In this document: piece by piece, positions 42,301-57,700 of the stretch
How the letters are laid out: each line of letters begins with the position of its first letter
Position numbering within the stretch: the first letter of the stretch is position 1
Virus record (IMG/VR): IMGVR_UViG_3300023435_000009
DNA length: 64,000 nucleotides
Source of the DNA: a virus
Taxonomy: Duplodnaviria > Caudoviricetes
Reading direction: 5' to 3' (one strand)
Notes under the pieces: model-generated
What the model saw: only the letters and a program-made list of their open reading frames with translations
Database searches by the model: none
What the model was told of the DNA's origin: nothing
Translations under genes and position numbers: made by a program

Positions 42301-43490
42301 TATCTCTGAGTGATGACCTGGCATATCTGCTTGGGGCTTGGCATGGGGATGGTTCTGTGAGACCCCATGGTGTTGCCTTCACGGAGAATCGAAAGGAAGT
42401 CACAATTGAAAGGTTGCTCATAAACTCGCTGGAAAGGGTGCATGGGGCAAAAAAGGTCGCCTGTTACCATTATGCCAGTCGGCCAGGGTCCTTTGACATG
42501 GAGTTGTACGACGCATCCTTTAAACGTTGGTTCGAGGACTTGGCGGAAAAAAGATGTGTTGCAGTACCTCGGATAGTGCGAGAAGCATCCCAACAGTCTG
42601 TCATTTTTTTCCTGAAAGGTCTTTTCGATACTGATGGTTGGATAAACAATCGGGGTATTATCGGAGTCTCCTCCAAAACGGATTCTCTCTTGCGACAGGT
42701 CCAACTGTTGTTCCAGGCCATGGGGATAGATTCGCATTTGTCGTCACGGCAACAGAAGCTGGAGGTAACGAATAAATCTTACACTGTATGGACTTTGCGG
42801 ATAAGGGGTTGGGAATCTTGTTGCTCCTTCGTTCGATTGGTGGGTTTCAGTGAGCCCTGGAAACAGGAACGAGCGATGAAGCGGTTGAATACCGTGCCGA
42901 AGAGGAAACGTTCGGATCAGGTCTACCCCTTCCCGAAGATGTTCCGGGCACTCGTAAAAAGGCATCTTCCGTATCGCTTGGTTAAGGATGGGACTGTTCG
43001 ACGGTCCTTATACAATCAGGTGCATCGTGTGAAACAAAGGGGTGTCGTTCCTGAGGACACCGTGCGGTACGTCCTGGACGTGTTACACCGTAGAGGTGTT
43101 CAGGATGAGGATGCAACCTTCCTCCAACAGATGTTGGACAACTGGCATGTGCTACAGGTTGTTGCGTGTGATCCTACGGGGGAGATTGCCCCTGTGTATG
43201 ACCTGGAGGTAGGGGGGGATCACGAGTACCAGACGGGGCCGTTGCTCTCCCACAACTGTGAGCGTTCCGCTGATGTGGTGACGGCATCTTGGATCGATGA
43301 GGAACTGTCAAAGGCTAACCGGGTGCAGTTCCAATGCCTCAAATCTCGTGACCAAAAGCCCTTCGAGATGTTCAACGCACGGGTAGAGTGGCCATGCCGG
43401 AGACTTCTCACAAGCAGCGATCCGGTTATGTCAGCGCAGCAGCAGGAATCGGTAGGGAATCAATTGGACAAGATTAAGAAACTGGACTGA
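39333..43490 (+). CDS. dnaB: DnaB-like replicative helicase with two inteins
   Basis: TGIFQMDTALNG.KRHELWVHAAFTGGLK|STLM, SLIFSLEMP, LVFVDHAGL, VVALFQINRE, SYSNE|CERSADVV, QCLKSRD. Confidence 0.85.
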   Translation: MKVLLRSCFMVGSGDPRKELYDNYFVLRSSGLEFNTNEDQVLWRHVQDFVRMHNHVPDNLSVRHHFEQLREDEIVKRLAHLSSLQVITRGDFITRVTDLAEERRIRLVGEVLQDAADIVRVGREFRSGKEVLKLKGPAAAIKYILDKSHDIVAPTLGGKLSGEVTRDGTDFQAEYKKIAENPRAGVGQHTGIFQMDTALNGAKRHELWVHAAFTGGLKCVAGDTRIFDLATGKLHTVFDLYTLGHAPLVHTLDEKSWEITRGQASTVVQSGVRPIFRITSKSGRQIRVSGNHPFLTPEGWINAEDLQPGSWVAMPGGMPGCTLLSPFSDEEIALIGYLLGDGHIKDDISFTNGNPEILDDFVRCLKALGYKEYAGTVKSRTASFRFMADRPSSRMIRVSKSTGNSPRHPWTSPLRLTLERLGLWGCTSGDKHIPLEMWQMTDKQVWVLLAALWAADGTVRTETSGRGRRPRPKAHYTTKSRRLAWDIQALLQRVGVSSTIAPINVLYQGEYRRYWTLLVTTNEGKRQFLSHVRIAGKGAFVKEALAAVSSNEGTDWVPPALLSEIDDSVRAKTRQGGWHYARHAKRKGAIQRDTAVRLALASANPIALKKVQSTIHWDRLVEIVPDGGEMTYDLSVPGTANFVANGFIVHNSTLMLNWAYNQAIWYKWNSLIFSLEMPYQQCRRLLYSMHSFHRKFDAIRHKMGLQKDPTSAVGLPYVNIRDGTLAEWHPEAEKFLEDFVIPDMNGIPVIKTKDPETGQPWFCDYGRIHIEVADPEKSDFTVIDMRQKAELLFSQDPFSLVFVDHAGLMAPRKWVSSTTDRLNEVIRDLKRMAMSFNKGQGLPVVALFQINREGYRSAMKSKDKGGVARYDLTHLSYSNECCKSLTLLRFARGAFPIREAVVGDRVWSNTGWKDVLGVYPQGDRPIWCVQTDRGSKLECTADHRVRVFREEQLEWEQVENLKPGDWLLGSRGGSFPEVTPVLPESWGNTVSLSDDLAYLLGAWHGDGSVRPHGVAFTENRKEVTIERLLINSLERVHGAKKVACYHYASRPGSFDMELYDASFKRWFEDLAEKRCVAVPRIVREASQQSVIFFLKGLFDTDGWINNRGIIGVSSKTDSLLRQVQLLFQAMGIDSHLSSRQQKLEVTNKSYTVWTLRIRGWESCCSFVRLVGFSEPWKQERAMKRLNTVPKRKRSDQVYPFPKMFRALVKRHLPYRLVKDGTVRRSLYNQVHRVKQRGVVPEDTVRYVLDVLHRRGVQDEDATFLQQMLDNWHVLQVVACDPTGEIAPVYDLEVGGDHEYQTGPLLSHNCERSADVVTASWIDEELSKANRVQFQCLKSRDQKPFEMFNARVEWPCRRLLTSSDPVMSAQQQESVGNQLDKIKKLD
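39987..41285 (+). mobile_element. Intein 3 (LAGLIDADG), 433 aa, in DnaB Walker A
   Basis: CVAGDTRI...FVANGFIVHN followed by Ser. Contains LIGYLLGDG and LAALWAADG. Confidence 0.9.
41973..43256 (+). mobile_element. Intein 4 (LAGLIDADG), 428 aa, in DnaB motif H4
   Basis: CCKSLTLL...YQTGPLLSHN followed by Cys. Contains LLGAWHGDG and FLKGLFDTDG. Confidence 0.88.
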
Positions 43491-43501
43491 CGAGGACTAC
43501 A

Positions 43502-44851
43502 ATGAAAGACCTTTTTGACTTCCTTACCCCCGAGACGGACACCCCAGCGGAGACTTCGGTCAAGACCTCGGTGGAAACATCACAGGAGTGTCTGTTAGTT
43601 ACCCCTGAGTCCACCGCAGAAGTAGAACTCCCCCCTGAGGAGACCCCGATCGAGACTCCTGTGGAAACTCCTGTTGAGATCCTGGAGGAGACTCCAGTAA
43701 AGGCTCCGACTCCTGCTGTTGCAACAGGATACGAATCCAAGGAGGATCTGCTGGGTACCTGTTTGCCGCCGCAGACGGAGCCATGGGGTATCGAGGACTT
43801 GATCGACCCTGTACCTCCCGTTCAGGCAACGGGTTGGACGCCTCCAGAGGAGAAGCGGGACTTCGATTGGTCTACTCCTGAGTCCACCGCAGAAGTAGAA
43901 CTCCCCCCATATGCTTCGGAAGGGTGGACACCCCCGGATGATCTGATCAGCTATTTGTTGACCTTGATCTCCCCGCCGGACGAGAAGGCCCTTTATCTTG
44001 AGGACTTAGCGCTTATCAAGTGGGCTGAATGGGCCAAGCGCCCAGACAACTCGCTGTGCGGGTTGATCACACGGGGGACGCCCACCGATGAGCAGTCGAA
44101 GGAGTTGCACCGAGTCTTGAAACCTGGGGCACATCTCCTGCTTATCGCTCCTGATGCAGAACCGTGGGGATCGACGGGTGCTTGCAGTGTAGAGGATTCC
44201 GGGTTCGAGATCAGGGACGCCATTGCCATTGCCCTGCCGTTGGATGAGTTGGCGAAGCTTCCCTCAGCGAGCACACCACCTTGTCATCCTTTCCACTACG
44301 TTCCCAAGGCCGACAGGGGCGAGCGGGAACTGGGCTGTGATGCCCTGGGTGGGAAGAGCGGAGCGGAGGCCGTAGGTCGGAAGGAGGGGGACGCTGGAAC
44401 CGCTCACGGTGCGGCGGGGGCCGGGCACGGTAACAGCAGAATTCGGAACTTTCATCCAACGGTAAAACCCGTTGATTTAATGGTAAAAATCCTCCATGAC
44501 GTGCCCAAGACCCCTGAGGATTTCGAGGTGCCTACCCCCACGGTGGACACTAAGGCGTCGGACGTGCTGGACCCCTATATGGTCCTCGATCCCTTCCTGG
44601 GTTCCGGGTCCACAGGGCTGGCGTGCATGGAGACAGGCCACAATTTCAGGGGGATGGAGCGGGAGGAACCCTATTTGGAGATCGCCACCGCTCGGGCCGA
44701 ACTGTGGCGCAGCAGGCTCGGAGCGAAGAAGGGTTCCGCAACCCTTCTCGGTGACGAGGGAAGTCGTCCCATCATCATTTCGGACGTGGGCACCACCCTG
44801 TTGGTCACGGAAGAGCCTCAGGAAGAGCCTGAACTCGATGTGTTTTTCTAG
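43502..44851 (+). CDS. MTase module C: SAM-binding subunit (motifs X-I-II), DPPY absent, acidic N-terminal tail
   Basis: NFHPTVKP, VLDPFLGSGSTG and GMEREEPY are present. The remnant catalytic half (ELHRVLKPG, GFEIRD) has LITRGTP where DPPY should be. Confidence 0.8.
   Translation: MKDLFDFLTPETDTPAETSVKTSVETSQECLLVTPESTAEVELPPEETPIETPVETPVEILEETPVKAPTPAVATGYESKEDLLGTCLPPQTEPWGIEDLIDPVPPVQATGWTPPEEKRDFDWSTPESTAEVELPPYASEGWTPPDDLISYLLTLISPPDEKALYLEDLALIKWAEWAKRPDNSLCGLITRGTPTDEQSKELHRVLKPGAHLLLIAPDAEPWGSTGACSVEDSGFEIRDAIAIALPLDELAKLPSASTPPCHPFHYVPKADRGERELGCDALGGKSGAEAVGRKEGDAGTAHGAAGAGHGNSRIRNFHPTVKPVDLMVKILHDVPKTPEDFEVPTPTVDTKASDVLDPYMVLDPFLGSGSTGLACMETGHNFRGMEREEPYLEIATARAELWRSRLGAKKGSATLLGDEGSRPIIISDVGTTLLVTEEPQEEPELDVFF
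43604..43908 (+). repeat. 32-bp exact direct repeat (43604-43635 and 43877-43908) encoding PESTAEVELPP
   Basis: cctgagtccaccgcagaagtagaactcccccc is present twice in the N-terminal tail of module C. Confidence 0.9.
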
Positions 44852-44860
44852 GGGGACATT

Positions 44861-45583
44861 GTGGGCGCTTACAGTTGCACACAGCTTCAACTTGGGGACT
44901 GCACAGTGCTGATGGATGCTCTCCCGGAGGGTTCCGTGGGGGCCATCGTTTGTGACCCACCTTACGGCTTGGAGTTCATGGCCCTTGACTGGGAGAAACT
45001 TGGAGACAAAGTCCCCAAGTCCATCAGGAACTTCAAGGGGTTCAAAGAAGGCGATGGTGCCCTTCGGTTACCCAAGTATTCATCCACCTCTCGGTACAGC
45101 ACTCCCAACAGAACGTGTTCAGTGTGTGGTGGGATGGAGCGGGGGACACGGCGCAAATGTCCCTGTGAGAGACCCCACGATCATTGGAAGCCTATTGGGA
45201 AGCGGCGCAAGCTGCCTGAGGACACCCCAGATGGTGTGACAGGTGGTGGGATGCAGGATCATCTCCTGGCCATTGGTCTGTGGCACACTCTCTGGTTGAA
45301 GAGCGCCCTGCGAGTACTCCAGCCAGGTGGGATTGCTAAGATTTTCAGCGGAACGAGAACGTTCCACAGGCTGGCTTGGGCGATGGGAGAGGCCGGGTTT
45401 GAGATCCTACGGATCGATGCCTGGACCTATGGTTCAGGCTGGCCCAAGTCCCTGGATGTTGGGCGGTCCATGCGGAAACGGTTGGGTCTCCCTGATGACA
45501 GTCCCGTCCTGTGCGACGGATATGGCACAGCATTGAAGTCCTGCTGGGAACCTTTCCTAGTAGGGAGGAAGGCATTGGTATGA
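44861..45583 (+). CDS. MTase module A1 (DPPY catalytic half, no motif I)
   Basis: LQLGDC, CDPPYGLEFM, LRVLQPGG, YGSGWPKS. Ends WEPFLVGRKALV*. Confidence 0.85.
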   Translation: MGAYSCTQLQLGDCTVLMDALPEGSVGAIVCDPPYGLEFMALDWEKLGDKVPKSIRNFKGFKEGDGALRLPKYSSTSRYSTPNRTCSVCGGMERGTRRKCPCERPHDHWKPIGKRRKLPEDTPDGVTGGGMQDHLLAIGLWHTLWLKSALRVLQPGGIAKIFSGTRTFHRLAWAMGEAGFEILRIDAWTYGSGWPKSLDVGRSMRKRLGLPDDSPVLCDGYGTALKSCWEPFLVGRKALV

Positions 45584-46200
45584 GAAAACTCCTTCAGTTA
45601 CAACTCGGAGACAGCGCCCGATTGATGCGGGATCTCCCGGAGGGGTGCATCGGAGCCGTCATCTGCGATCCTCCCTACGGACTGGAATTCATGGGGAAGA
45701 GCTGGGATGCCCCCTGGAAAGAAGTGGGCATGGAACCGGAGAACACTGAGGAATACACGGGGTGTGCCTCCGACAGCCGTGCCTTTCAGGAGTGGGCAAC
45801 GATCTGGTTGCGTGAGTGCCATCGTGTCTTGCAACCAGGGGGCCTCATCAAGGTTTTCGGTGGCACACGAAAATACCACCGGATGGGTGCGGCGATGGTT
45901 CAGGCAGGGTTCGAGATCGAACGCCTGGAAGCCTGGGTTTATGGTTCGGGTTTCCCGAAGAGCCTGGATGTCGCCAAGGCCCTGGACAAGTCGCTTGGTG
46001 CTGAACGGGAGGTTCTCTCCACCCGCAAGGGTCATGGGAACACCGGCTCCGGGTGTTACAACTGGAACAACCCGGATGACCTGACTGATCGTTCTGTGGT
46101 CCCTATCACGGAGCCTGCCTCGGACAGCGCCAAGAAATATAAGGGATATGGAACAACGCTGAAACCAGCGTGGGAGCCCTTCCTGGTGGGGCGAAAATGA
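45580..46200 (+). CDS. MTase module A2 (DPPY catalytic half)
   Basis: ATGA-coupled. CDPPYGLEFM...YGSGFPKS. Ends WEPFLVGRK*. Confidence 0.85.
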   Translation: MRKLLQLQLGDSARLMRDLPEGCIGAVICDPPYGLEFMGKSWDAPWKEVGMEPENTEEYTGCASDSRAFQEWATIWLRECHRVLQPGGLIKVFGGTRKYHRMGAAMVQAGFEIERLEAWVYGSGFPKSLDVAKALDKSLGAEREVLSTRKGHGNTGSGCYNWNNPDDLTDRSVVPITEPASDSAKKYKGYGTTLKPAWEPFLVGRK

Positions 46201-46628
46201 TCGTGATCACCGTCGCCAGGAAGCCTTTAGAAGGTTCCGTTGCCACTAACGTGCAACGATGGGGCACAGGCGCTTTGAACATCGATGCTTGTAGACTGGA
46301 AATTGGGGACACAGAACGGGCAGTTATAGACAGTCGTAGCGGAGGTACCTCTGTTGACTATGACTGGCAGGGTCCAGTGGTGATGAGATCGGTTGGGGAA
46401 CGGTACACCTCACATGTTGCCGGAAGGTGGCCCTCTAACTTCATCCTCCAGGGAGATTGCTCCGTCAGGGAGTTAAACAATCAGAGTGGCGTTACGAAGA
46501 ACGGCGGGTCAAACGCCAACAAGTTGGTCGTTGGGCTGGGGGTCGTTGGCTGGTGTACCGGGAGTGCCACGAACTATGCGGGTGACGTCGGTGGGGCATC
46601 CAGGTTCTTCAAACAGGTAACGAGATGA
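46197..46628 (+). CDS. MTase module B1 (TRD-like middle segment)
   Basis: Starts MIVITVARKPL. Contains GTGALNIDACR and GRWPSN. Ends ASRFFKQVTR*. Confidence 0.8.
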   Translation: MIVITVARKPLEGSVATNVQRWGTGALNIDACRLEIGDTERAVIDSRSGGTSVDYDWQGPVVMRSVGERYTSHVAGRWPSNFILQGDCSVRELNNQSGVTKNGGSNANKLVVGLGVVGWCTGSATNYAGDVGGASRFFKQVTR

Positions 46629-47392
46629 TAACCCAGTTTCAACTTGGGGACTGTGTTGCCCTGATGAAGTCAATGTCCGAGGGGTCCGTAGGCTCCATCG
46701 TCAGTGATCCTCCCTATGGGCTGGAGTTCATGGGGATGCAGTGGGACAAGCTCGACACGGGCGACAGCCACGTTGGGCAGATGAGCAACAGCGGGTTCTC
46801 CACCGGCACCGGACCCAACGCTGGGCGACCCAACTATGGGGCCAGCGCCAACCTCAAGTGTCGGACCTGTAACCGCTGGCTTTGGGATCAGGAGAAGCGG
46901 AAGTGCCAGTGTGCCATTCCCGACCTTCCTAACTTCAAAGCGATCCAGAACAGGACCATCCAACAGTGGCATGAGGGCTGGTTGTCTGAGGCTCTTCGTG
47001 TCCTGCGGCCCGGTGGGCTCATTAAGGCATTCAGCAGCCCCCGGCTGTTCCACAGGCTGGCGACAGCGATGACCAATGCCGGGTTCGAGGTGCTCCGCTT
47101 GGAGGCTTGGGTGTATGGCTCAGGGTTCCCCAAGAACCACAACATTTCCAGGGCCATTGACATGACCAAGGGGGTCTTTGACCAGCGGAAGGTCATAGGG
47201 CACAAAAGGGGCGTCATGGCACTAGACAGTCTCGGTTTCGGTGGGATCGCACGGGGGGTGGTAGGGGCGCACCAAAAGGCCACTGACGTGCCCGTGACGG
47301 TCCCAGCGTCTCCTGAGGGTCTCCGCTTCTGGGGCTACGGAACTGCCCTCAAGTCCTGTTGGGAGCCTTTCGTGGTGGGGAGGCGGGCGTGA
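46625..47392 (+). CDS. MTase module A3 (DPPY catalytic half)
   Basis: SDPPYGLEFM, CRTC...CQC insert. Ends WEPFVVGRRA*. Confidence 0.85.
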   Translation: MITQFQLGDCVALMKSMSEGSVGSIVSDPPYGLEFMGMQWDKLDTGDSHVGQMSNSGFSTGTGPNAGRPNYGASANLKCRTCNRWLWDQEKRKCQCAIPDLPNFKAIQNRTIQQWHEGWLSEALRVLRPGGLIKAFSSPRLFHRLATAMTNAGFEVLRLEAWVYGSGFPKNHNISRAIDMTKGVFDQRKVIGHKRGVMALDSLGFGGIARGVVGAHQKATDVPVTVPASPEGLRFWGYGTALKSCWEPFVVGRRA

Positions 47393-47841
47393 TCATCATC
47401 ACAGTCGCCAGGAAGCCCCTGGACGGGACAGTTGTTGCTACGGTTCTCACATGGAGTGCCGGGGGGCTGAACATCGACGGTTGTCGAGTTACTGGTGTTC
47501 CACCCTCCGTCCCACAATGGAACAGAGCGGCTGGAAATGCTCCCTTTGACGCAGACGGTAGAAACGGCAGGATGTCTCAACCATCACAGTTGGGACGTTG
47601 GCCTTCTAACTTGATCCTCTCCCATGCACCCGGTTGCGGAGTAGACTGTGAAGGAGGTTGTCCCGTGTCCGAGATGGCTCGCCAGGGAGACCTTGTGGGA
47701 AGCCACAGTGCAGGAAGTCAGAAGGCTCCGCAATATGGTCCGAGTCAGCATCCCGATTGGTTGTTCAATGGTTTCGGTGCAAATGCCCGCATAGGGGATA
47801 CAGGCTCTGCGGCTCGGTTCTTCAAACAGGTGAAGCGATGA
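47389..47841 (+). CDS. MTase module B2 (TRD-like)
   Basis: GTG start coupled to the A3 stop. IITVARKPL...LNIDGCR...GRWPSN...RFFKQVKR*. Confidence 0.8.
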   Translation: MIIITVARKPLDGTVVATVLTWSAGGLNIDGCRVTGVPPSVPQWNRAAGNAPFDADGRNGRMSQPSQLGRWPSNLILSHAPGCGVDCEGGCPVSEMARQGDLVGSHSAGSQKAPQYGPSQHPDWLFNGFGANARIGDTGSAARFFKQVKR

Positions 47842-48302
47842 TCGTGATCACCGTCGCCAGGAAGCCTTTAGAAGGTTCCGTTGCCACCAACGTGCAACGA
47901 TGGGGCACAGGCGCTTTGAACATCGATGCTTGTCGGGTCGGCTCGGAACCGATTACGGTCAACAGGTGGGATGACGGCTCTAAGCCCTTCGGCGGGGGTG
48001 CCGGGCACTCCTACCACCCCGAGACCTTCACGGGCCGCTGGCCTGCTAACCTGATCCTCTCCCATGCACCTGGCTGCGGAGTAGACTGTGAGGGGGATTG
48101 TCCCGTGCCTGAGATGTCCCACCAGGGGGCGCTTGTGGGTGCTCACAGTGCAGGAAGCCAAAGGGCACCTCAGTACGGTTTGAGTCAGCATCCCGATTGG
48201 TTGTTCAATGGTTTCGGCGCAAACGCCCGAGTAGGGGACACAGGCTCGGTGGCTCGGTTTTTCAAACAGGTGAGTGATTCCCATGCCAATGTACGAATAT
48301 AG
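47838..48302 (+). CDS. MTase module B3 (TRD-like; B1/B2 chimera)
   Basis: First 96 bp are nearly identical to B1. Last 222 bp are colinear with B2. Confidence 0.8.
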   Translation: MIVITVARKPLEGSVATNVQRWGTGALNIDACRVGSEPITVNRWDDGSKPFGGGAGHSYHPETFTGRWPANLILSHAPGCGVDCEGDCPVPEMSHQGALVGAHSAGSQRAPQYGLSQHPDWLFNGFGANARVGDTGSVARFFKQVSDSHANVRI

Positions 48303-48462
48303 CTGCCCTGATTGCGAGCATGATTTTGAACAGCTTGTCAAAGTAGACGACCCGACCCTTCCCTGTCCCAAGTGCGGGGGGGACCAGGTCCAGAAGAAGG
48401 TCTCCCAGTCCACCTTCAAGCTGGCAGGCGGCGGCTGGGCAAACGACGGATACTCCTCATGA
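48283..48462 (+). CDS. FmdB-family zinc-ribbon protein
   Basis: MPMYEYSCPDC...CPKCGG...KKVS...F...GGGW...Y is the canonical FmdB/CxxC_CxxC_SSSS pattern. Confidence 0.85.
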   Translation: MPMYEYSCPDCEHDFEQLVKVDDPTLPCPKCGGDQVQKKVSQSTFKLAGGGWANDGYSS

Positions 48463-49130
48463 TCGTACAGCTTCAACTGGGGGACTGTGTAGAGCGGATG
48501 AAGACCCTCCCAGATTGCTCCATCGGGGCGGTGGTCAGCGATCCTCCTTATGGGCTGGAGTTCATGGGTGAGGACTGGGACAAGTTAGACATGCGGGGGA
48601 GCGCTTCCCGTCCGAACACATCCGAGTCCTCCACCTCTCGTTCTACGAGGGGGATGAATCACGGCATCCATGCGGGCAAACCTGCGTTGGATCTGACGTT
48701 GGATTCCCAGCGGGCGATGCAGGCGTGGCACCTTCAGTGGCTCCAGCAAGTCCACCGCATCCTTCAGCCAGGAGGGATCGCCAAGATATTCAGTGCCACC
48801 CGGACCTTCCACAGGCTCGCTGGAGCGATGACCGAGGCTGGATTGGAGATCCTCCGTCTGGAGATCTGGGACTATGGTTCAGGTTTCCCGAAGGGCCTCG
48901 ACGTGCCCCGTGCCTTGGATAAGCATCTTGGGGTTGAGCGCACTGTAGTGGCGGTAGGGCAACGCAAAGGTCGCTGTCCCCAGCCGATGTGGTGGGAGCA
49001 GGAAGACACTGTCGGTCAGCAGTGGGACATCACGGCCCCGACCTCCCCCCAGGCCCAGAGCTATGCTGGGTACAACACAGCGCTCAAGCCTGCGTGGGAA
49101 CCCTTCCTGGTAGGGAGAAAACCGCTGTGA
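48459..49130 (+). CDS. MTase module A4 (DPPY catalytic half)
   Basis: ATGA-coupled. SDPPYGLEFM. Ends WEPFLVGRKPL*. Confidence 0.85.
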   Translation: MIVQLQLGDCVERMKTLPDCSIGAVVSDPPYGLEFMGEDWDKLDMRGSASRPNTSESSTSRSTRGMNHGIHAGKPALDLTLDSQRAMQAWHLQWLQQVHRILQPGGIAKIFSATRTFHRLAGAMTEAGLEILRLEIWDYGSGFPKGLDVPRALDKHLGVERTVVAVGQRKGRCPQPMWWEQEDTVGQQWDITAPTSPQAQSYAGYNTALKPAWEPFLVGRKPL

Positions 49131-49756
49131 TCATCCAATACCAACTCGGGGACTGCGTTACTCTGATGCAGGAGCTTCCTGACGAGTCTGTGGGGGTTGT
49201 GGTCTGTGATCCACCTTACGGCCTTGGTTTTTTGAATCAGGAGTGGGATCACTTCCGAGACGGGACACAGGGATGGCACTCACAGTGGTTAGGGGAGGCA
49301 TTTAGGGTGCTCCAACCGGGGGGTCTCATCAAGGTGTTCACTGCCCCTAAGCTGATGCATCATTTGATAGTTGCGATGTCCTTTCAGTCCTTTGAGATCC
49401 TACATGTGGAGGCCTGGCTATATGGTAGCGGTTTCCCCAAATCACTGAGTGTCTCCAAGGCTGTAGACTCAGAGGTGTTGACGGGAAAAAGCAACTCGGT
49501 GGCTCTGGCTGTCAGCGAAAAAACTCGTCCTGTCGTAGGCCACAACCGTCGGGTCATTTCTGCGGGTCGGACGAAAGAGAATGAGGGATTACACGGGGGA
49601 GCAGCCTATTGGGAGCGTTGGAACAACTACCACCAGGGGGACGTTCCAGTCACGGTTGCTCGGAGCGATATAGCCCGGACCTTTGACGGTTACGGTACAT
49701 CTCTTCGTCCGGCCTGGGAGTCGTTGGTTGTAGCAAGGAGACAGGCATGTCTCTAG
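49127..49756 (+). CDS. MTase module A5 (DPPY catalytic half)
   Basis: GTGA-coupled. CDPPYGLGFL. Ends WESLVVARRQACL*. Confidence 0.85.
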   Translation: MIIQYQLGDCVTLMQELPDESVGVVVCDPPYGLGFLNQEWDHFRDGTQGWHSQWLGEAFRVLQPGGLIKVFTAPKLMHHLIVAMSFQSFEILHVEAWLYGSGFPKSLSVSKAVDSEVLTGKSNSVALAVSEKTRPVVGHNRRVISAGRTKENEGLHGGAAYWERWNNYHQGDVPVTVARSDIARTFDGYGTSLRPAWESLVVARRQACL

Positions 49757-50556
49757 TGCAACTTCAACTCGGGGACTGTGTAGAGAGGATGAGGGCTCTT
49801 CCTGATTGTTCCATCGGGACGCTCGTCAGTGACCCCCCCTATGGCTTGGAGTTCATGGGTCGGGAGTGGGACAAGCTCGAACCCCGCCGCAATCAGCAGC
49901 GCTGGAAAGGCACGGAACGGAAACTCATCGGGGACGGGTCCGGCGTCGGCGGTGACTTCGGGGCCAGGATGGGTGAGCTACCCTCCTACATCCCGAAGCG
50001 GAATGATCACTGCACCAAGTGCGGACACTACAAGTTCAGCGGGAACCCCTGCGTGTGTCCCACGCCCGAGTGGGAGAACCGGACGCTAGAGCACGTCGCC
50101 GCAATGCAAGCGTGGCACGAGGAGTGGCTTCAGGAGGTCTACAGAATCCTTCATCCCGGCGGGATCGCTAAGATCTTCAGTGGGTCTCGGACGTTCCATC
50201 GGTTGGCCGCAGCGATGGTTGCCGTGGGATTCGAGATGCTGCGGATCGAAGCGTGGGTTTATGGATCCGGCTTCCCGAAGTCCCACGACGTCTCACGGGC
50301 CTTGGACAAACACCACGGAGCGACACGAGCGATGGTTCGGATCGTGGGTAGTGGTGCCGGTCGGAACCCGAAGAGTATCGCCGGGGGCGAGGACATAGAG
50401 GGTGGGGATCGACCCTGGATGAGGCTCGCTCGGGAGCAGGGGTACTATGACAAAGAGGGTGGCGTCCCTGTGACTTCTGACGCCATCCGATGGGTGGGTA
50501 GGGGTACAGCCCTAAAACCCGCCTGGGAGCCCTTCCTGGTTGCAAGGAGGCCATGA
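49747..50556 (+). CDS. MTase module A6 (DPPY catalytic half)
   Basis: SDPPYGLEFM, CTKC...CVC insert. Ends WEPFLVARRP*. Confidence 0.85.
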   Translation: MSLVQLQLGDCVERMRALPDCSIGTLVSDPPYGLEFMGREWDKLEPRRNQQRWKGTERKLIGDGSGVGGDFGARMGELPSYIPKRNDHCTKCGHYKFSGNPCVCPTPEWENRTLEHVAAMQAWHEEWLQEVYRILHPGGIAKIFSGSRTFHRLAAAMVAVGFEMLRIEAWVYGSGFPKSHDVSRALDKHHGATRAMVRIVGSGAGRNPKSIAGGEDIEGGDRPWMRLAREQGYYDKEGGVPVTSDAIRWVGRGTALKPAWEPFLVARRP

Positions 50557-50843
50557 TGCCAGATCTTAGTGACATGGAGTGGGTCGTTTCCTATACGTCC
50601 CGAGGTTCAGAACTCGTCCACGAGACGGCTGCGGAATGGGACCAGCAGATCAAATCGCTCCCAACCTTTGCCCCACTAGACGACATCTACGCCGAGTTAG
50701 GACGACTCGGACGACCGGACATGGTTGACATTTTGAAGAAGGCCAGCATCGGGTTGGACGGAAAGGAACTCAACGCCTTGGTGGAGCTAATCCGGGCGGG
50801 AGTCTACTGGCAAGAAGGTCAGATGGAGTACAAACACCGATGA
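50553..50843 (+). CDS. Hypothetical protein (96 aa) inside the MTase array
   Basis: ATGA-coupled on both sides. Confidence 0.6.
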   Translation: MMPDLSDMEWVVSYTSRGSELVHETAAEWDQQIKSLPTFAPLDDIYAELGRLGRPDMVDILKKASIGLDGKELNALVELIRAGVYWQEGQMEYKHR

Positions 50844-51496
50844 TTATCATCACCGTAGCCCGTAAACCTCTGAGTGGTACTGTAGCCCAAACTGTGCAGG
50901 AGCATGGAACGGGCGCACTGAACATTGACGGTTGCCGCATCTCTACCGAGGGCGAGTCATTCGTGACCCCGTTGATCTCCTCTGTGGACAACCGGACGGG
51001 AGGAGACCGAGACCTGACCTTCTGGAGTCGGTCCAATGATGAGAGGTTTAAACAAGCCCAGCGGGAGAGCATCGAGCGGACTCGTTCACTGGGTCGGTGG
51101 CCCGCCAACCTGATCATCCAACATTCAGTGGATTGTACTTGCCGGGGCCAAAAGAGGGTAAAGGGGACCAACAATGCTTCTCTCGTCAATACGGTCGCCG
51201 GATCTCTCCCAACGAAGGTGGGGGCAGTAGGATTGAAAAGAGACGCTCCCGGAATCTATGGGTATTCCGACGCAGAGGGCATGGAGACGGTTCCTGACTG
51301 GCATTGTGATCTAGGGTGCCCCGTTTTGATGTTGGATGCCCAGAGCGGTGTTCACAAGTCTCCTCCTGTAGATCGTGGGGCGGATCGGGACAAGATCTCA
51401 GGGGGCACGGGTGCCTGCTACTGCTTCGCTGGACAGTCCCCAGGGTATGGTGACGTCGGTGGGGCATCCAGGTTCTTCAAACAGGTGAAGCGATGA
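50840..51496 (+). CDS. MTase module B4 (TRD-like)
   Basis: MIIITVARKPL...LNIDGCR...GRWPAN...WHCDLGCPV...ASRFFKQVKR*. Confidence 0.8.
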   Translation: MIIITVARKPLSGTVAQTVQEHGTGALNIDGCRISTEGESFVTPLISSVDNRTGGDRDLTFWSRSNDERFKQAQRESIERTRSLGRWPANLIIQHSVDCTCRGQKRVKGTNNASLVNTVAGSLPTKVGAVGLKRDAPGIYGYSDAEGMETVPDWHCDLGCPVLMLDAQSGVHKSPPVDRGADRDKISGGTGACYCFAGQSPGYGDVGGASRFFKQVKR

Positions 51497-52092
51497 TCGT
51501 GATCACCGTTGCCAGGAAGCCCTTGGAGGGCACTGTGGCCCAAACTGTGATGGGATACGGAACGGGTGGTCTGAACATTGGTGCCTGTCGCCTCCGAACC
51601 ACTGAGGTGGGGAAGGAGCGGGAGTACAAGGACCGGGAAGATCGAGAGAACTGGCGGATCACTGGAGGCTCCACGGGGAGTGGGGCGACATCCTCTGCGG
51701 GACGTTGGCCTGCTAACCTGATCCTCCAGCATCACCCTGACTGCGTTCGGTTGGGGACGGTGATGGTGGATGGTTTCAAGGGGCACACGGTCAAGGAACA
51801 AGCGGATGGTCACATCCAGTTCAACCACAAACCTCCTGGTTACGAGAAGGTGAACCACACGGATGCGGATGGGAAGGAGCCGGTGGAGACGTGGCATTGT
51901 GCTCCGGGTTGCCCCGTTCAGGCCCTGGATGGACAGAGTGGTGTTTCCACGAGCCAGGTTAGAGTAGAAGAGGGGGCAGGGGAGCATCTTGATCCCTCCC
52001 GAGAGGACTGGCGCTTCAAGAGAGTCCCTGGCGGTTATGTGGATACCGGGGGAGCATCGAGATACTTCAAAAGGATCGGAGGTCGATCATGA
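51493..52092 (+). CDS. MTase module B5 (TRD-like)
   Basis: MIVITVARKPL...GRWPAN...WHCAPGCPV...ASRYFKRIGGRS*. Confidence 0.8.
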   Translation: MIVITVARKPLEGTVAQTVMGYGTGGLNIGACRLRTTEVGKEREYKDREDRENWRITGGSTGSGATSSAGRWPANLILQHHPDCVRLGTVMVDGFKGHTVKEQADGHIQFNHKPPGYEKVNHTDADGKEPVETWHCAPGCPVQALDGQSGVSTSQVRVEEGAGEHLDPSREDWRFKRVPGGYVDTGGASRYFKRIGGRS

Positions 52093-52640
52093 TCGTTATC
52101 CATGTTGCAAGAAAGCCCCTCATCGGGTCCGTGGCCAAGAACGTTCTGGCACATGGCACAGGAGGTCTGAACATCGACGGTTGTCGGATCGGTTCAGACG
52201 AAGCGGGCTGGGGTGGACGTGGGGGTGGCCTCAAGAACTGGAACGACAAGGGGGTCGGAATGAAGGAGGGTGCTGCTCGTCCCGTCGTTGGACGTTGGCC
52301 CGCCAACCTTGTGTTGGAGCACACCCCACAGTGCAAACTGAAGGGGCGTCGTCCGATGTCTACCCTTGACGTTGTAGAACAGGGCACCATCGTGGATAGT
52401 GCAGGTTATGTGGAGATCTGGGATTGTGTGGAGGGGTGTCCCGCCAAGGAGACCGTCACACAAGGTGGCAGTTCCGACTTCTTCTTCCAGGTCCAGGGTA
52501 TTGAAGACCCGCCGGAGTACAGCCACGCCGCTGGGGATGTCGTCTGTCAAACGTGTGGGAAGCCCTACAGCGAGCATCCCCTGGATGCCCGTTATGACTG
52601 GCTGAACGTATTGTGTGATGGGTCGCTGGTGAAACTCTAG
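52089..52640 (+). CDS. MTase module B6 (TRD-like) with extra C-terminal Cys/His domain
   Basis: MIVIHVARKPL...GRWPAN...WDCVEGCP...SSDFFFQV, then AAGDVVCQTCGKPYSEHP...LNVLCDG.LVKL. Confidence 0.75.
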   Translation: MIVIHVARKPLIGSVAKNVLAHGTGGLNIDGCRIGSDEAGWGGRGGGLKNWNDKGVGMKEGAARPVVGRWPANLVLEHTPQCKLKGRRPMSTLDVVEQGTIVDSAGYVEIWDCVEGCPAKETVTQGGSSDFFFQVQGIEDPPEYSHAAGDVVCQTCGKPYSEHPLDARYDWLNVLCDGSLVKL

Positions 52641-53596
52641 GAAACCTTCCTGATGATCCGTTTGACGTGGCGACCCTTGTCCAACGTCCCTGGTTCCACC
52701 AGAACTTTAGTCCCGATTTTCAACCGGAGTTCCCTGAGACAGGTGTTGCAGATCCACCGGGTTGTTCCATCATCCAGCCACACCTTAATCGAAGCGACAT
52801 TCCCACAGGCTTGGGCGCTGATGATATCTGCGAAGGCCCTGTTCCTTTTGTTCGTGGCGACGTCCTTTTTTCGCACCACCCCGCATTTGCCCTTATGCGG
52901 TTTCGGAGGAGCATATTCTTCGGTCCTTTGGTACTCGAAGATGTACCGCACGATCACCTGATCGGGTGAGTAGACGACATTCTCATCGTGTTTGAGCTTC
53001 CCACCCCAGCTTGAGGTATGGCCCGCCACCCCGGCTACCGAGTGGAACCCTTCGGCTTGTACCTTGTCCAGGGTGTACTTTGTCGGGGACGGGCACTCCA
53101 GCACTTTTCCCAGGGCCGCATCCACCTGGAGGATATAGCAGGCATCTCCGCCACGGTATCGCCAGCCCCAGCCCGTGTATCCGAAGGCCTTGGTGGGGGA
53201 TCCCATGTAGATGCCGGAACCGAACAGGCAACCGCCTCGGCCCGTCTGCAAGCCCTTTCGGGTGATGTCCCCGATGTTGCGCGAGGTGGTCCCGTGGTAA
53301 AGGGATCGGACGTTCCCGACTTCCTGTGTCACCTCCGCAAAGAGGGCCTCCTGTTCCTCGGTGTTCTTGACCACCCAGGCTGCGGAACAAATGTAGCCCC
53401 GGTACCGAGGAGCCAGACTCCGTCGTGCCTTCCCGATGGCCAGAGGTTTGCCCTTCTCTTTGAACTCGGCCAAGACCCGGATCTTCCCCAGTGGGATGGG
53501 TTTGGGCGGTGGTGGGTCCGGCGGGACAGTACGAGGATCGATCCTTTTGCTCTGGGGTCGGCTCTTCCCGCTGCTCCTGTTCTTTCGTTTGCCCAT
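52637..53596 (-). CDS. PARP-like (H-Y-E) ADP-ribosyltransferase
   Basis: LYHGTT, LFGSGIYMG..TKAFGY, ILQVDAALGK, FHSV and HDENVVYSPDQV..RY align by eye with the PARP signature HGS / FGKGIYF..SKS.NY / NEYIVYD..QV..KY. Confidence 0.8.
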   Translation of the reverse strand: MGKRKNRSSGKSRPQSKRIDPRTVPPDPPPPKPIPLGKIRVLAEFKEKGKPLAIGKARRSLAPRYRGYICSAAWVVKNTEEQEALFAEVTQEVGNVRSLYHGTTSRNIGDITRKGLQTGRGGCLFGSGIYMGSPTKAFGYTGWGWRYRGGDACYILQVDAALGKVLECPSPTKYTLDKVQAEGFHSVAGVAGHTSSWGGKLKHDENVVYSPDQVIVRYIFEYQRTEEYAPPKPHKGKCGVVRKKDVATNKRNRAFADIISAQACGNVASIKVWLDDGTTRWICNTCLRELRLKIGTKVLVEPGTLDKGRHVKRIIRKVS

Positions 53597-53616
53597 GCAC
53601 CTCTCCTACACCTTTT

Positions 53617-53644
53617 CTACTCTAACTAGAGGGCGGATGATCCC
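53617..53644 (-). promoter_or_regulatory. Third copy of GGGATCATC-N12-AGAGTAG, upstream of the PARP-like gene
   Basis: Reverse complement of ctactct-aactagagggcg-gatgatccc. About 20 bp upstream of the start, with an AGGAGAGG RBS between. Confidence 0.6.
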
Positions 53645-53664
53645 GTGATGGAGTAGGATAACAC

Positions 53665-54264
53665 ATGGCGACGTTGAGAGAACGCATCGACCGGATTCAT
53701 AAAGAGATTGACATCACTCAGGTGTTGTCGGATCTGGGGTATCCAGTACATATGGGAGGGGGCTATCGGGAGCAGCAGTTCCCGTGTGACTTGCACGGTG
53801 ATGGGCACGACAACAAACCTTCGGCTCGGGTGTATCCTGAGTCATCTTCTTGGTACTGTTTTGGCTGCTCTAAGGCAAGAGACGCTATTGATACAATACA
53901 GGCTAAGGAGGGAATCACCTTCCATGAAGCCATCCGCAAACTGGAGGCAGACTACAATCTCCCGTCGCTTCCCTGGGACGATGATCGCCCCCTTCCCCCT
54001 TCGGAAACGCTACGGGGGACTGTTAAAGCTTCCGTGGATCCTACCAGGACGTTGGCAGATGACCTGAAAACGATCCGGTCCACGTTAGGTTGGATCACTG
54101 AAGAACGGTTGTTGGGGATGGACAGAACGCTTACGTTTTGGGAGGCCGTAGATCAGGTGGCTTACAAGGTAGAGAACGAGTTGATGCCGGAACAGATGGG
54201 CCGTCAGGTTCTGACGGTTTTCCAAGAGCGGTTGGATGGGGCTATTCAGGGGGGCGAAGGATGA
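53665..54264 (+). CDS. Stand-alone CHC2 (DnaG-type) zinc-binding domain protein
   Basis: FPCDLHGDGHDNKPSARVY...WYCFGC....DAI......EGITFHEAIRKL. No TOPRIM domain follows. Confidence 0.75.
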   Translation: MATLRERIDRIHKEIDITQVLSDLGYPVHMGGGYREQQFPCDLHGDGHDNKPSARVYPESSSWYCFGCSKARDAIDTIQAKEGITFHEAIRKLEADYNLPSLPWDDDRPLPPSETLRGTVKASVDPTRTLADDLKTIRSTLGWITEERLLGMDRTLTFWEAVDQVAYKVENELMPEQMGRQVLTVFQERLDGAIQGGEG

Positions 54265-54704
54265 GGATCTTCCTGGAGTTCAAGCTGCAAACCGCTGAGT
54301 GGGGTGAGGTGCCAGTTTCCAGGATCCTCCCTACCCCAGATGAACCGCTGTGGGGCCGAGCGGCACCGCTGCGGGACACGCCGTGGGGGGGTGGGATCCA
54401 AACCGTGTCCGGCGAGGATTTCTCCAATGCCCTGCACGGACACGTCGTGCCGTTGGTTCGTTCGCTGGGTACCCCTCCGGCAGTCAGGTTGCGCCGTATC
54501 CCCGAGGGATGGCGCACCTGTGACATGTCGAATGGGTGCATCTCGTACAAGCCAGAAAACTGCCACCCCTGCAAGGATCTCCCGGACTGTTACGTTCCTC
54601 CTCAGGTGTCCTCGGACGCCCTGGCGTTGGCAACCCACGTTGTCCTCGCCTGGAGGGACGGATTTCATGTGGTTGTTGTGAAGGGCGGAGAGTTCACGCT
54701 GTAG
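54261..54704 (+). CDS. Hypothetical protein with Cys cluster
   Basis: ATGA-coupled. C..(M)..GC......CHPC...PDCY.P. Confidence 0.55.
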   Translation: MRIFLEFKLQTAEWGEVPVSRILPTPDEPLWGRAAPLRDTPWGGGIQTVSGEDFSNALHGHVVPLVRSLGTPPAVRLRRIPEGWRTCDMSNGCISYKPENCHPCKDLPDCYVPPQVSSDALALATHVVLAWRDGFHVVVVKGGEFTL

Positions 54705-54727
54705 AGTAGGACAAGGGTGGAGGAAAG

Positions 54728-57700
54728 ATGGATAAAGACAACGACGGTCTGGTAATGCTCATTCCCGGAGAGGAATCCCCCAAGGTCACCCCAAAGACCG
54801 AAGAACCCGTGACGGAGGACCCGGAGGCCATTGACGTCTTCAACTTTTTTGCGGACAACGACGAGTTGAACCCGCAGCGGCTCTGGAAACCCTGGATGGA
54901 CGAAAAGAAGTTCGTCCTCGGGACCGTGGACAACATCACTCAGATCATGGACGAGTGCATCGAATCAGGGCGGTATGCCCTTGATCTTGAGACCACGGGT
55001 TTGGACAATCGGCTCAAGAAGACGGCCAGCGGGCACTACTGCACCGTTGACCACATTGCTGGCGTTTGTCTGAGCGCCGATGGTGTCACAGGGTATTACA
55101 TTCCGATTCATCATGTGAAGGTGGGGGAGGACGGACTCAGGGAAGACCGAGCCTGCAACATCCCGATAGGCATCTTCGACCGGGAATTCCGGCGGCTCAT
55201 CAAAGCGACCGAGGATGGTCTCACCGTCGCAGACTTCCACAACGGTAAATTTGACCAGGAGTTCCTCCAGTTCAATGAGACAGGAATCCCCTGGGGTGAA
55301 TGGGACCGCCCCGCAATGTGGGACGACACCCTCATCGCCGCCTACATGCGGAACACCCGAGCCAGACGCCGGGGTCTTAAGGCATTGTCCGAAGCTCCCG
55401 TGGATTCTCCCCCGGAGAACACCGTGGGTGGTCCGGGTCTGGGCATGGAGATGATCGACCTCTACGAGTTGTGGGGGCACAAGAAGGAGCAGCGAGGTTT
55501 CAACTATGACTTCTCGGTCCTTGACCCGACCGAGGGGCCTGCCCTGTGGTACGGATGCAGCGACGCCATCTGCACCTGGCTGCTCGACCCGGTCCTGATG
55601 CCCTCTGCCAAGGAAAAGGACACGGATGGGATCAGCCAGGCGGCGATCTACAAGATCGAGAAGGTCTGCGTAGCAGCCACTCGTTGGATGGAGCGCAATC
55701 TCATCCACATCAACCGAGACAAGGTCCAAGAGTTGGTTTCGTTGGGCCAGCAGGAATGGTTCGACTCCATCGTAGAGGTCTACACGGAGGCGTCCAAGAT
55801 CTTGGGCCGGGACGTGATGCCTGATCTCTACAAGGAGGTCCAGCGGAACTTTGTGGCCAATGACCCTGACAACCTCCTGCGAACGCAGCTTGAGAAGGCG
55901 GACAGCCTCACGAAGCGCAATCCTGGCATGCCCCCCGTGTTGAAGGGGGAGGAGTCCTGGCCTGCAGTCTACGACGTGAACTCCCAGAAGCAGCTTGGGA
56001 CGATGTTCAATGAGATGGAGGTGCCGGGCCTCAAGTTCACGGAGAAGTCCGGTCAGGTCAAAACGTCCAAGGACGAGTTGAACAGGATCATTGAGGAAGC
56101 GGGCCAGAAGTTCCCGTTCATGGCGAAGATCAAACGCTTCCGGGAGGTGGCCAAGGCGCTGTCTACCTACCTGGAGTCGATGTTGCTGGCGAGTGACCCT
56201 GAAGATGACTCCATGCGGATCAACTTCAACGGGCACAAAGTGGATACGGGCCGCTTCAGCACCCCTGCGAAGGAGTCCGCAGGCGACAGGCGCAAAGGTC
56301 GGATGATCGGTTGGCCAGAGTTGAACGTCCAGTCAATGCCGAACCGTTACGATCCTGACCGCCCGGAGTGCATGAACAGATTGCGGGAATGTTTCGGTGT
56401 CAGGACTGTGCCCAAGGATGCACCACCCCGTTTCCTAGTGGCAATAGATTATGCTGGCGTGGAATTACGGTTGGCTACCAATATTTCGGGTGAGCCTAAA
56501 TGGTTGGCTGAGTTTTTCCATTGTTCTTCCTGTGACCGAACCTTCGAACGAACACCTCGCACAGGTGCTGACATAATAGCCACTATAACCCCCGTACCTC
56601 CTCCTGCACGGTGCCCGAACTGTGGTAGTGACAAGATAGGGGACTTGCACACCCTGACAGGACTCTCCATTTATGGGGCTGACGCTACGAGCAGGCCCGA
56701 TTGGAAGAACCTTCGTGGTCATTCGAAAGCAACCAACTTTGCATTGTCCTACGGTGGCGGAGGGAGCGCTGTGTGTCGGGCTACGGGAGTGGATCGGAAC
56801 GAGGGTCAGCGGATTAAGAACCAGTTCGACAACACCTACTACGGCCTGAAGCGGTGGTGGAACAGTCAGCATAAATACGCCAAAACATACGGTTACGTGC
56901 GGACAGCCTTCGGTCGGAAGTATCCTGTACCGGACATCTACAACGAAGACGGGGGTTTCCGGTCCAAGGCAGAGAGGAATAGTGTGAACGGACCCATTCA
57001 AGGTTGTATTCGATTTGATGAAAGGGTAGCTAGTAGTATAGGGTTGCTAGACATCCAGACGTTGTTCCAGAGGCAATTTCCAGGTCTTCTGTTTTGGACT
57101 GGTGTAAAATGGGTGGCTGGGCGTGTGCTGGCTTCAGGGGAAAAGCTCGATTGTTGTACGGAACTAAGCAATGGCAATACGTTACACACTAGTCCAGATC
57201 ATCAGTTTCGAGTACTGACGGAACAGGGGCTGGGGTGGGTGGCACAGAAAGAACTGTGTTCCGAAACTTGGGTAGTTACCAATGCAACATCTGTAACAAC
57301 GACGGATGTTCCCCATTACCAATGGGATAGAGCAAGAGATCCTCAACGAGGACACCTGTTTTCGAAAGGAATGACGTCGCACAATGCCAAACGTTTTCTG
57401 TTTGCTGGTAATTCCGCCGTACTATGGGAGTTTTTGGGTGCTATCTACGGGGACGGTTCAATCCAACAGAACGCCTTCATCTTGCACATTGGTGAGTCCA
57501 ACCTTTCAAAAATCCCAGCGGGGCAGCGGTCTTCAGAATGGATGCTGAAACTCAACACCCATTTGCAGGTGGAAGCAATAACAAGGAAGCAACGACGACG
57601 AGAAGACGACAACAGACAGGACATGTGGCAGGTTAAAGTACTGAACAAAGATTTCAGGACGTTTTGTCGTGACGTGCTCGGTGTGTTAGATCAAACAACA

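Follow-up and report, generated by a model that had tools for sequence, protein, structure and literature searches.

The 64,000-nucleotide stretch of viral DNA analysed here (IMG/VR record IMGVR_UViG_3300023435_000009; Duplodnaviria, Caudoviricetes), which we refer to as the window, carries an array of six small genes, B1 to B6, that are putative free-standing pieces of a DNA methyltransferase. Comparison of these genes with one another and with those of a sister phage gives good support to the view that the B modules are mosaics, made by recombination at their conserved blocks. The fuller explanation, in which free-standing middle pieces of the enzyme are recombined at shared docking blocks, is in our judgement likely correct. 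The window is part of a phage genome of ~528 kb, assembled from metagenomes of salt lakes (contigs of up to 528,282 bp carry the identical B5 protein), and the array lies in a 14-gene, translationally coupled, same-strand operon (43502-52640) with the gene order C, A1, A2, B1, A3, B2, B3, Z, A4, A5, A6, X, B4, B5, B6 and with ATGA or GTGA stop/start overlaps at nearly every junction. The operon holds a beta-class N6/N4 DNA methyltransferase in pieces: one S-adenosylmethionine (SAM)-binding piece (C), six catalytic pieces with the DPPY motif (A) and six B pieces.

All four shared blocks from which the initial annotation had argued for mosaicism were reproduced. B1 (46197..46628, plus strand, 143 amino acids) and B3 (47838..48302, plus strand, 154 amino acids) are identical over their first 96 bp (46197-46292 versus 47838-47933) except for a single mismatch at 46247, and B2 (47389..47841, plus strand, 150 amino acids) matches B3 in its 3' part over 222 bp (47612-47833 versus 48052-48273) with 34 mismatches, or 84.7% identity, a repeat that a dedicated search extended to 242 bp at 84%. 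The borders are sharp: the B1/B3 identity runs from the ATG to the end of codon 32, and that of B2/B3 from the GRWP block to the 3' end of B2. An exact 38-bp 3' block is common to B1 (46581-46618) and B4 (51449-51486), and the B2/B3 and B4/B5 junctions share 51 bp with one mismatch (47816-47866 versus 51471-51521). The further point that conserved blocks flank variable segments also held, since a 5' block, a GRWP block and an ASRFFKQV block are present in all B genes; these correspond to an N-terminal MIVITVARKPL..G.V...V....G.G.LNI..CR (codons 1-32), a central GRWPANLIL and a C-terminal ASRFFKQV, with the variable segments between them. Among the four shared blocks, the 51-bp junction block is the weakest evidence of recombination, because it is partly explained by a Shine-Dalgarno (SD)-like AGGTGA and a conserved start: the last ~20 nt of B2 and B4 carry AGGTGA 5 nt before the overlapping ATGA, and the first 29 nt that follow encode the invariant MIVITVARKP.

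Synonymous sites set the B1/B3 pair apart. Over codons 1-33, third-codon-position identity is 94% in B1/B3 and 27-52% in all other B pairs in the genome, pairs that are themselves 62-75% identical in amino acid sequence. We then compared exact tracts with a null in which codons were redrawn while the proteins and the codon usage of the array were kept (200 replicates). No replicate attained the longest exact tract of B1/B3 (50 nt), B1/B4 (38 nt) or B2/B3 (36 nt), and those of B2/B4 (26 nt) and B3/B5 (21 nt) were each reached in 1 of 200. Excess exact tracts were confined to B pairs, no A-module pair being unusual in the same resampling (lowest 7/200).

A triplet test on B3 found 31 B1-type informative sites in a row, followed by 78 of 94 sites of the B2 type; the best breakpoint gave a Fisher value of 7e-18, and none of 10,000 permutations was as extreme. 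For the B2/B3 pair, synonymous divergence (dS) amounts to 1.87 over the 5' block and 0.68 over the 3' part and is saturated in the core; at least three histories are therefore combined in one gene pair, which excludes a simple duplication with uniform divergence. Uniform identity along the modules, which the initial annotation had named as the observation that would count against its proposal, was thus looked for, and unequal dS was found. The 34 mismatches in the shared 3' part of B2 and B3 comprise 25 transitions and 9 transversions, 22 of them at third codon positions. From these comparisons B3 is evidently a three-part mosaic: a B1-type 5' part (47838-47933, 99%), a core of its own ('beta', ~47934-48030) and a B2-type 3' part (48032-48273, facing 47592-47833 in B2 at 84-85%). 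The whole 5' block, a putative docking element, was copied between B1 and B3 by recent gene conversion. The proposal that homologous recombination or gene conversion between paralogous direct repeats made the B modules mosaic, with breakpoints in the conserved blocks that flank the variable cores, agrees with all of these results.

We obtained a second view of the array from L097, an 11-kb contig of a close sister phage that was found through 83% and 72% homologues of B3 and that begins at the 3' end of its own B1. Between window and L097, A3, Z, A4 and A6 are 97-100% identical in nucleotide sequence: A3 is 99% identical in amino acids with a proportion of synonymous differences (pS) of 0.14, Z is 100% identical in amino acids, A4 differs in one residue (pS 0.08) and A6 is 98% identical in amino acids (pS 0.10). 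B5 and B6 are 96% and 97% identical in amino acids, each with a pS of 0.26, and B4 is 83% identical with an unusually divergent allele (pS 0.51). The place of A5 is taken in L097 by a different module, 41% identical in amino acids; X is absent; and the B2/B3 region is rearranged. The first L097 B gene after A3 has a core that matches the B3 core of the window (87% of nucleotides), and the second has a core that matches the B2 core, designated 'alpha' (74%), together with a 3' part and an odd 9-residue tail that match window B3 (94-100%; the tail is identical).

Site patterns among these four B2/B3-type genes locate the exchange. In the cores, 35 sites have the pattern 'same core, other position' and 2 the pattern 'same position'; in the last ~100 nt the counts are 0 and 7; and the 150 nt next to GRWP give a mixture of patterns (8, 5, 5), a patchwork of short tracts. 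It follows that the variable cores of B2 and B3 have traded positions relative to the flanking sequence, through crossovers within conserved blocks. The comparison with L097 shows swapped B2/B3 cores, a 3' end and tail that kept their position, and an exchange of A5, X and the B4 allele as whole modules. The 5' block of window B3 is only 73-76% identical to either L097 gene, against 87% for the core, and its near-identity to B1 therefore arose after the two lineages split. By parsimony, B1 was probably the donor and B3 the recipient.

The TRD (target recognition domain) label that the initial annotation gave to these modules fits their place in the enzyme. A fused 515-amino-acid homologue (P0003, from the uncultured huge phage LR745208.1) is tiled at 36-37% identity by A2 (residues 18-207), B5 (whose residues 8-192 cover 206-400) and C (382-511); C also tiles residues 69-111. 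In beta-class enzymes the target recognition domain lies between motif VIII and motif X (PMC7544214); B tiles this interval of P0003 and therefore occupies the beta-class TRD place. DPPY (motif IV) is invariant in A1-A6 and their relatives, and motifs X and I are found in C and in no A or B module. The Pfam family PF01555 is matched in two halves, its N-half (profile positions ~3-90, with DPPY) in A1-A6 and its C-half (positions 156-220, motifs X and I, E 1.4e-11) in C only; a Pfam scan of B1-B6 gave no family match. Upstream of motifs X and I, alignment with relatives shows that C carries a DPPY-less pseudo N-half (RGTP at the DPPY place) and a low-complexity N-terminus. Among solved structures, A comes closest to CcrM (6PBD), and C to DpnA (5HEK) and CcrM. 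The beta-class order of motifs IV-VIII, TRD and X-I-III, by definition on one chain, is thus kept here but spread over three gene types, and by its motifs the system is one that works like a beta-class enzyme without being a canonical single-chain member.

The B modules are also variable, with a mean column identity of 34% in their alignment, and 1162 stand-alone B-like proteins of similar length (homologues of B5) occur in metagenomes. B1-B6 are probably free-standing TRD-region pieces, a reasonable label that draws on where they lie and how much they vary. A segment that is single in the fused homologue (WWMFRKP) has two copies in the array, as the strand that ends each A (..KPAWEPFLVGRK) and as the strand that opens each B (MIVITVARKP); copies of this connector are visible at 46171-46225 and at the other A/B junctions. 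The B end ASRFFKQV likewise repeats the FHYVPKA segment of C. Connector segments are present in duplicate on the pieces of the split enzyme.

Enzymes of the beta class work as dimers, one subunit recognising the DNA while its partner carries out the methylation (PMC7544214), and a heteromeric assembly would be compatible with this. A complex was predicted from A2, residues 140-449 of C, and B1, with an alignment supplied for every chain; it scored 0.88, against 0.46 for the best of 3 controls. Among solved complexes 58 of 80 reach that mark, as do 2 of 110 mismatched pairs. The runs agree in at least 83% of contacts, with a partner pLDDT of at least 62. Confident contacts of B1 in the model involve residues 1-12, 14-32, 77-89, 92-93, 96-97 and 134-143, that is, the three conserved blocks, and the variable segments 33-76 and 98-133 lie outside the predicted interface. 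The tightest predicted contacts join B residues 3-9, the N-terminal strand, to C residues 206-216 and 234-247, a region within the DPPY-less pseudo N-half. Independently of the model, B and C are linked by a natural B-C fusion in the related phage L095. The prediction supports binding of B to C and A through the conserved blocks.

Joined together, these results suggest the following course of events. Most likely, the conserved blocks serve to dock B in the methyltransferase core, and DNA reading most likely falls to the variable cores. Selection would keep the docking blocks alike across paralogues and, as a by-product, would maintain homology for recombination, so that exchanges would start and stop at the borders between docking block and variable core. 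Such recombination may take place between B genes within one genome and between co-infecting related phages. Re-sorted cores and docking ends could then, we infer, alter the set of sites that are methylated to escape host restriction. The best-documented event, in the B1/B3 5' block, copies a docking segment and not a variable core. A more speculative and, we think, rather doubtful extension would treat the B 5' block as an address: a detachable beta-strand and helix that plugs into an unfinished sheet of C or of a particular A. Conversion of the block would then re-wire the pairing of core and catalyst, recombination in the array would edit a combinatorial methylation repertoire, and free-standing, strand-donating TRD subunits would form a general and so far undescribed class of beta-class methyltransferase subunits in huge phages; the more than 1,000 B homologues, and relatives that carry one A with several B, bear on this idea.

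Several observations weigh against recombining, docked recognition pieces as the explanation of the array. The short 3' and junction tracts are partly explained by constraints on the ribosome-binding site and start region, and few sites are involved. Long exact tracts between B genes are lacking in the relatives L092 and L095, and L097 has one, of 35 nt, so that conversion would be sporadic and not continuous. The pieces of a split enzyme can pass complex prediction through their likeness to solved whole enzymes, and B still scored 0.46 when C was swapped for an unrelated protein. The A pieces have no SAM-binding half, and the model leaves their activation unexplained. A PDB sequence search with a B profile found no match at E up to 1, and an AlphaFold2 model of B5 was of moderate quality (pLDDT 71, pTM 0.49); Foldseek, at E 0.001 or better, matched it to nothing in the PDB. 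A core swap keeps both cores and need not create a new specificity, and the direction from B1 to B3 is unproven, the sister contig being without the 5' end of its B1.

The initial annotation had also suggested that the array expands and contracts. Between lineages this is borne out, in that A and B content, X and A5 differ; within the population of this phage it is not. The exact-protein look-ups with B5, B3 and B1 covered 24 contigs each, drawn from many samples (contigs of more than 200 kb occur in ~15 blocks of the collection), and among these ~24 contigs per look-up we observed no gain or loss of modules and the same gene neighbourhood at all places listed, although the look-up merges places with mostly the same neighbours and could miss rare structural variants. 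All 7 loci that were fetched are 100% identical to the window across the array; they come from different assembly pipelines (JGI 3300025697, 3300005939 and 3300022890; ENA k141 assemblies ERZ27315763, ERZ27316532, ERZ27315495 and ERZ27315522). A homology search with B1 returned only a 98% variant of the same lineage, which is also the only variant found in it: a 9-bp deletion (46581-46589) between GGTG microrepeats in one sample (JGI 3300025736; L098:1444-1866), on a 7.6-kb contig that is otherwise identical to the window. B1 thereby loses Gly-Asp-Val in its conserved C-terminal block, exactly where the 38-bp block that it shares with B4 begins.

Syntenic relatives carry the array in the same setting, after DnaB and before the primase and PolA genes. 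In L092 the order is C, two A, an uncalled B, three A and five B; its A orthologues pair one-to-one with those of the window (73-78% amino acid identity), and clear B orthologues exist only for B5 and B6 (57-59%), from which it follows that B genes turn over faster than A genes. A 536-kb phage (L095/L096) has a single A with three B, of which one is joined to C at the N-terminus of the latter (L095:8080-9390, in the order B, DPPY-less pseudo N-half, motifs X and I); then come A, B, a zinc-ribbon gene, a 69-amino-acid gene and B. A more distant relative (L099) has one A and apparently at least three B, as judged from called-gene sizes only. A lone B-like gene is present in a 520-kb phage (L093), in an unrelated neighbourhood. 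Megablast of the operon against GenBank phages gave no match, IMG/VR single-protein scans with B5, C and X gave no relatives, and a scan with the B alignment gave at least 80 loci that are ordinary fused methyltransferases of ~50-kb phages and uninformative about the array.

Other accounts of the shared blocks fare less well than recombination among the B genes. Purifying selection on the proteins and on nucleotide signals at the coupled junctions could keep blocks alike without any exchange: the N- and C-terminal peptides are common to all B genes, and the SD-like AGGTGA and the MIVITVARKP codons can explain part of the 51-bp and 38-bp blocks. Selection of this kind cannot, however, single out one pair for near-complete third-position identity while leaving the others at ordinary levels, nor does it yield the tracts that synonymous resampling never reached or the sharp breakpoint in B3. 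It also sits badly with the junctions themselves, which are more alike between paralogues in the window (49/51) than between orthologues in window and L097 (45-46/51, with 41/51 as a second count), a comparison of only a handful of sites. As a general account we consider it unlikely, and for B1/B3 and B2/B3 we reject it. A simple tandem duplication with uniform divergence, in which fast evolution makes the core look unique, would suit two adjacent genes that are 66% identical in amino acids overall and have ordinary mismatches in their 3' parts. Yet dS differs several-fold among the segments of B2/B3, B3 shares an almost identical 5' block with B1, to which it is not adjacent, and the cores stand at opposite positions in L097 while the flanking genes are almost unchanged; we hold this history to be very improbable.

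The direct repeats of 96-242 bp could in principle support deletion and duplication, and the array might then act as a high-frequency accordion or phase-variable switch within the phage population. Two JGI contigs stop at 47889 and 47963, in or just past the B1-like block of B3, and one sample has the 9-bp deletion in B1. Contig breaks at 96-bp repeats are, however, typical of short-read assemblers; the neighbourhood is uniform throughout the look-ups and the fetched loci do not vary; and no recombinase was noticed among the operon genes scanned, a scan that included no systematic search for one. Such a switch therefore seems to us to have little chance of being right. An inverting hsdS-type shufflon was ruled out, as 42000-56000 contains no inverted repeat pairs of at least 25 nt, which also counts against a switch, and all modules are on one strand. 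Mis-joining of reads from related phages or repeats deserves mention for a metagenome-assembled genome whose sister lineage L097 co-occurs in the same sample series; but identical sequence was recovered by different assemblers from different samples (JGI and ENA), a two-copy direct repeat whose copies differ by one base leaves one path that uses all segments, and the sister phage has a coherent mosaic of its own, so that we find an assembly chimera scarcely credible. Hypervariable segments within conserved scaffolds also recall the targets of diversity-generating retroelements. The 34 B2/B3 mismatches show no adenine bias (B2: T10, C9, A9, G6; B3: T10, C10, G9, A5), which rules this reading out; the variable cores cannot be aligned as template/variable repeat pairs, the operon genes scanned include no reverse transcriptase domain, and the probability left to such hypermutation is negligible.

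Recombination among B genes at their docking blocks has a close parallel in domain movement (DoMo) in the Type I and IIG specificity genes of Helicobacter pylori, which have the form x-(TRD1)-y-x-(TRD2)-y and in which one and the same TRD stands first in one allele and second in another (Furuta et al. 2011, PMC3077401). The movement is attributed to recombination at the flanking repeats, which also changes the number of TRDs (PMC3077401). In the phage array, too, conserved repeats flank variable cores, and the same core is found at different positions in the window and in L097. The phage array departs from DoMo in that its units are genes of their own, adjacent and translationally coupled, where DoMo has the two halves of a single S gene. 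Their partner enzyme is a Type II-like methyltransferase of the beta class, itself split, in place of the Type I M2S complex, and they are carried by a phage of ~528 kb in whose operon no restriction gene was seen. With the PF01555 enzymes CcrM, M.RsrI, M1.HpyAVI/DpnA and M.EcoP15I Mod the array shares the motif order IV...VIII - TRD - X - I, kept across its gene types. It departs from beta-class enzymes in being split into three polypeptide types (6 A, 6 B and 1 C), in the DPPY-less pseudo N-half of C, in the duplication of the A-end strand (EPFLVGRK) at the start of B (IVITVARKP), and in that B has no solved relative by sequence or fold.

The Bacillus phages SPR, phi3T and rho11 encode multispecific C5 methyltransferases with several exchangeable target-recognising domains. 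These are phage anti-restriction enzymes with several modular recognition domains, as the array may be, but they are single polypeptides with tandem TRDs in one variable region, whereas the array has its recognition modules in separate genes of an amino-methyltransferase. M.AquI and M.EcoHK31I are C5 methyltransferases naturally split into two polypeptides (PMC3404938, PMC2836561). Like these, the array methyltransferase lies in separate polypeptides that must assemble and is split in or next to the variable region; the two enzymes differ in having two pieces, one each, with C5 chemistry, no arrays of alternative pieces and no mosaicism reported. TRD shuffling at flanking repeats is thus already known from DoMo, and what is new is its setting among the free-standing TRD genes of a phage array; the split array is itself more unusual than the shuffling mechanism. 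Our literature search found no description of a split phage methyltransferase with separate TRD genes, nor of free-standing TRD genes in this class of enzyme, in a coverage that is incomplete and so gives no proof of absence.

The remaining parts of the operon are all encoded on the plus strand. C (43502..44851, 449 amino acids) has motif X as HPTVKP and motif I as DPFLGSGS. Its low-complexity N-terminal 140 residues, rich in Pro, Glu and Thr, contain a 36-nt direct repeat (43600-43635 and 43873-43908, 97%) that encodes TPESTAEVELPP twice; this N-terminus is missing in L092 and is replaced by a B module in L095. The catalytic N-halves are A1 (44861..45583; DPPY, motifs IV-VIII; 78% amino acid identity to its L092 orthologue), A2 (45580..46200; PF01555 positions 3-89), A3 (46625..47392), A4 (48459..49130), A5 (49127..49756) and A6 (49747..50556). 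Z (48283..48462) encodes a 59-amino-acid FmdB-like zinc ribbon (PF09723, phrog_1076) and overlaps the tail of B3; zinc-ribbon genes that resemble it are found in L095, directly after a B gene, and in L099. X (50553..50843) encodes 96 amino acids with no family match. The last three TRD-region modules are B4 (50840..51496, 218 amino acids), B5 (51493..52092, 199 amino acids) and B6 (52089..52640, 183 amino acids), the last with a different C-terminus and 59% amino acid identity to its L092 orthologue.

On one side the operon is flanked by a DnaB helicase gene with inteins (39333-43490) and on the other by a PARP-like gene, a primase gene and a family-A polymerase gene. The PARP-domain protein (PF00644, E 5e-10; 319 amino acids; 52637-53596, minus strand) directly follows the array, has a zinc-ribbon-like C-terminal region and is kept at the same place in L092 and L097, not in L095. 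PolA (54728-59083) holds an intein with a LAGLIDADG endonuclease, an insertion of ~1.35 kb at 57004-58348. The intein is absent from L097, whose gene is otherwise ~92% identical (1006 versus 1451 amino acids), and the polymerases of L092, L095 and L099 are also short; to judge by these genes, it is a presence/absence polymorphism among close lineages.

Phage methyltransferases are a main escape route from host restriction, and it remains a practical question how one phage comes to have many specificities. In the array, recognition modules take the form of small genes of their own that have docking ends in common, and the comparison with L097 provides a natural record of modules that were converted, swapped in position and replaced. 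Recombination at these docking ends would extend TRD domain movement from bacterial Type I systems to the split Type II-like enzymes of phages. If the cores do set specificity, the array would be a natural kit for recombining DNA-reading and catalytic parts.

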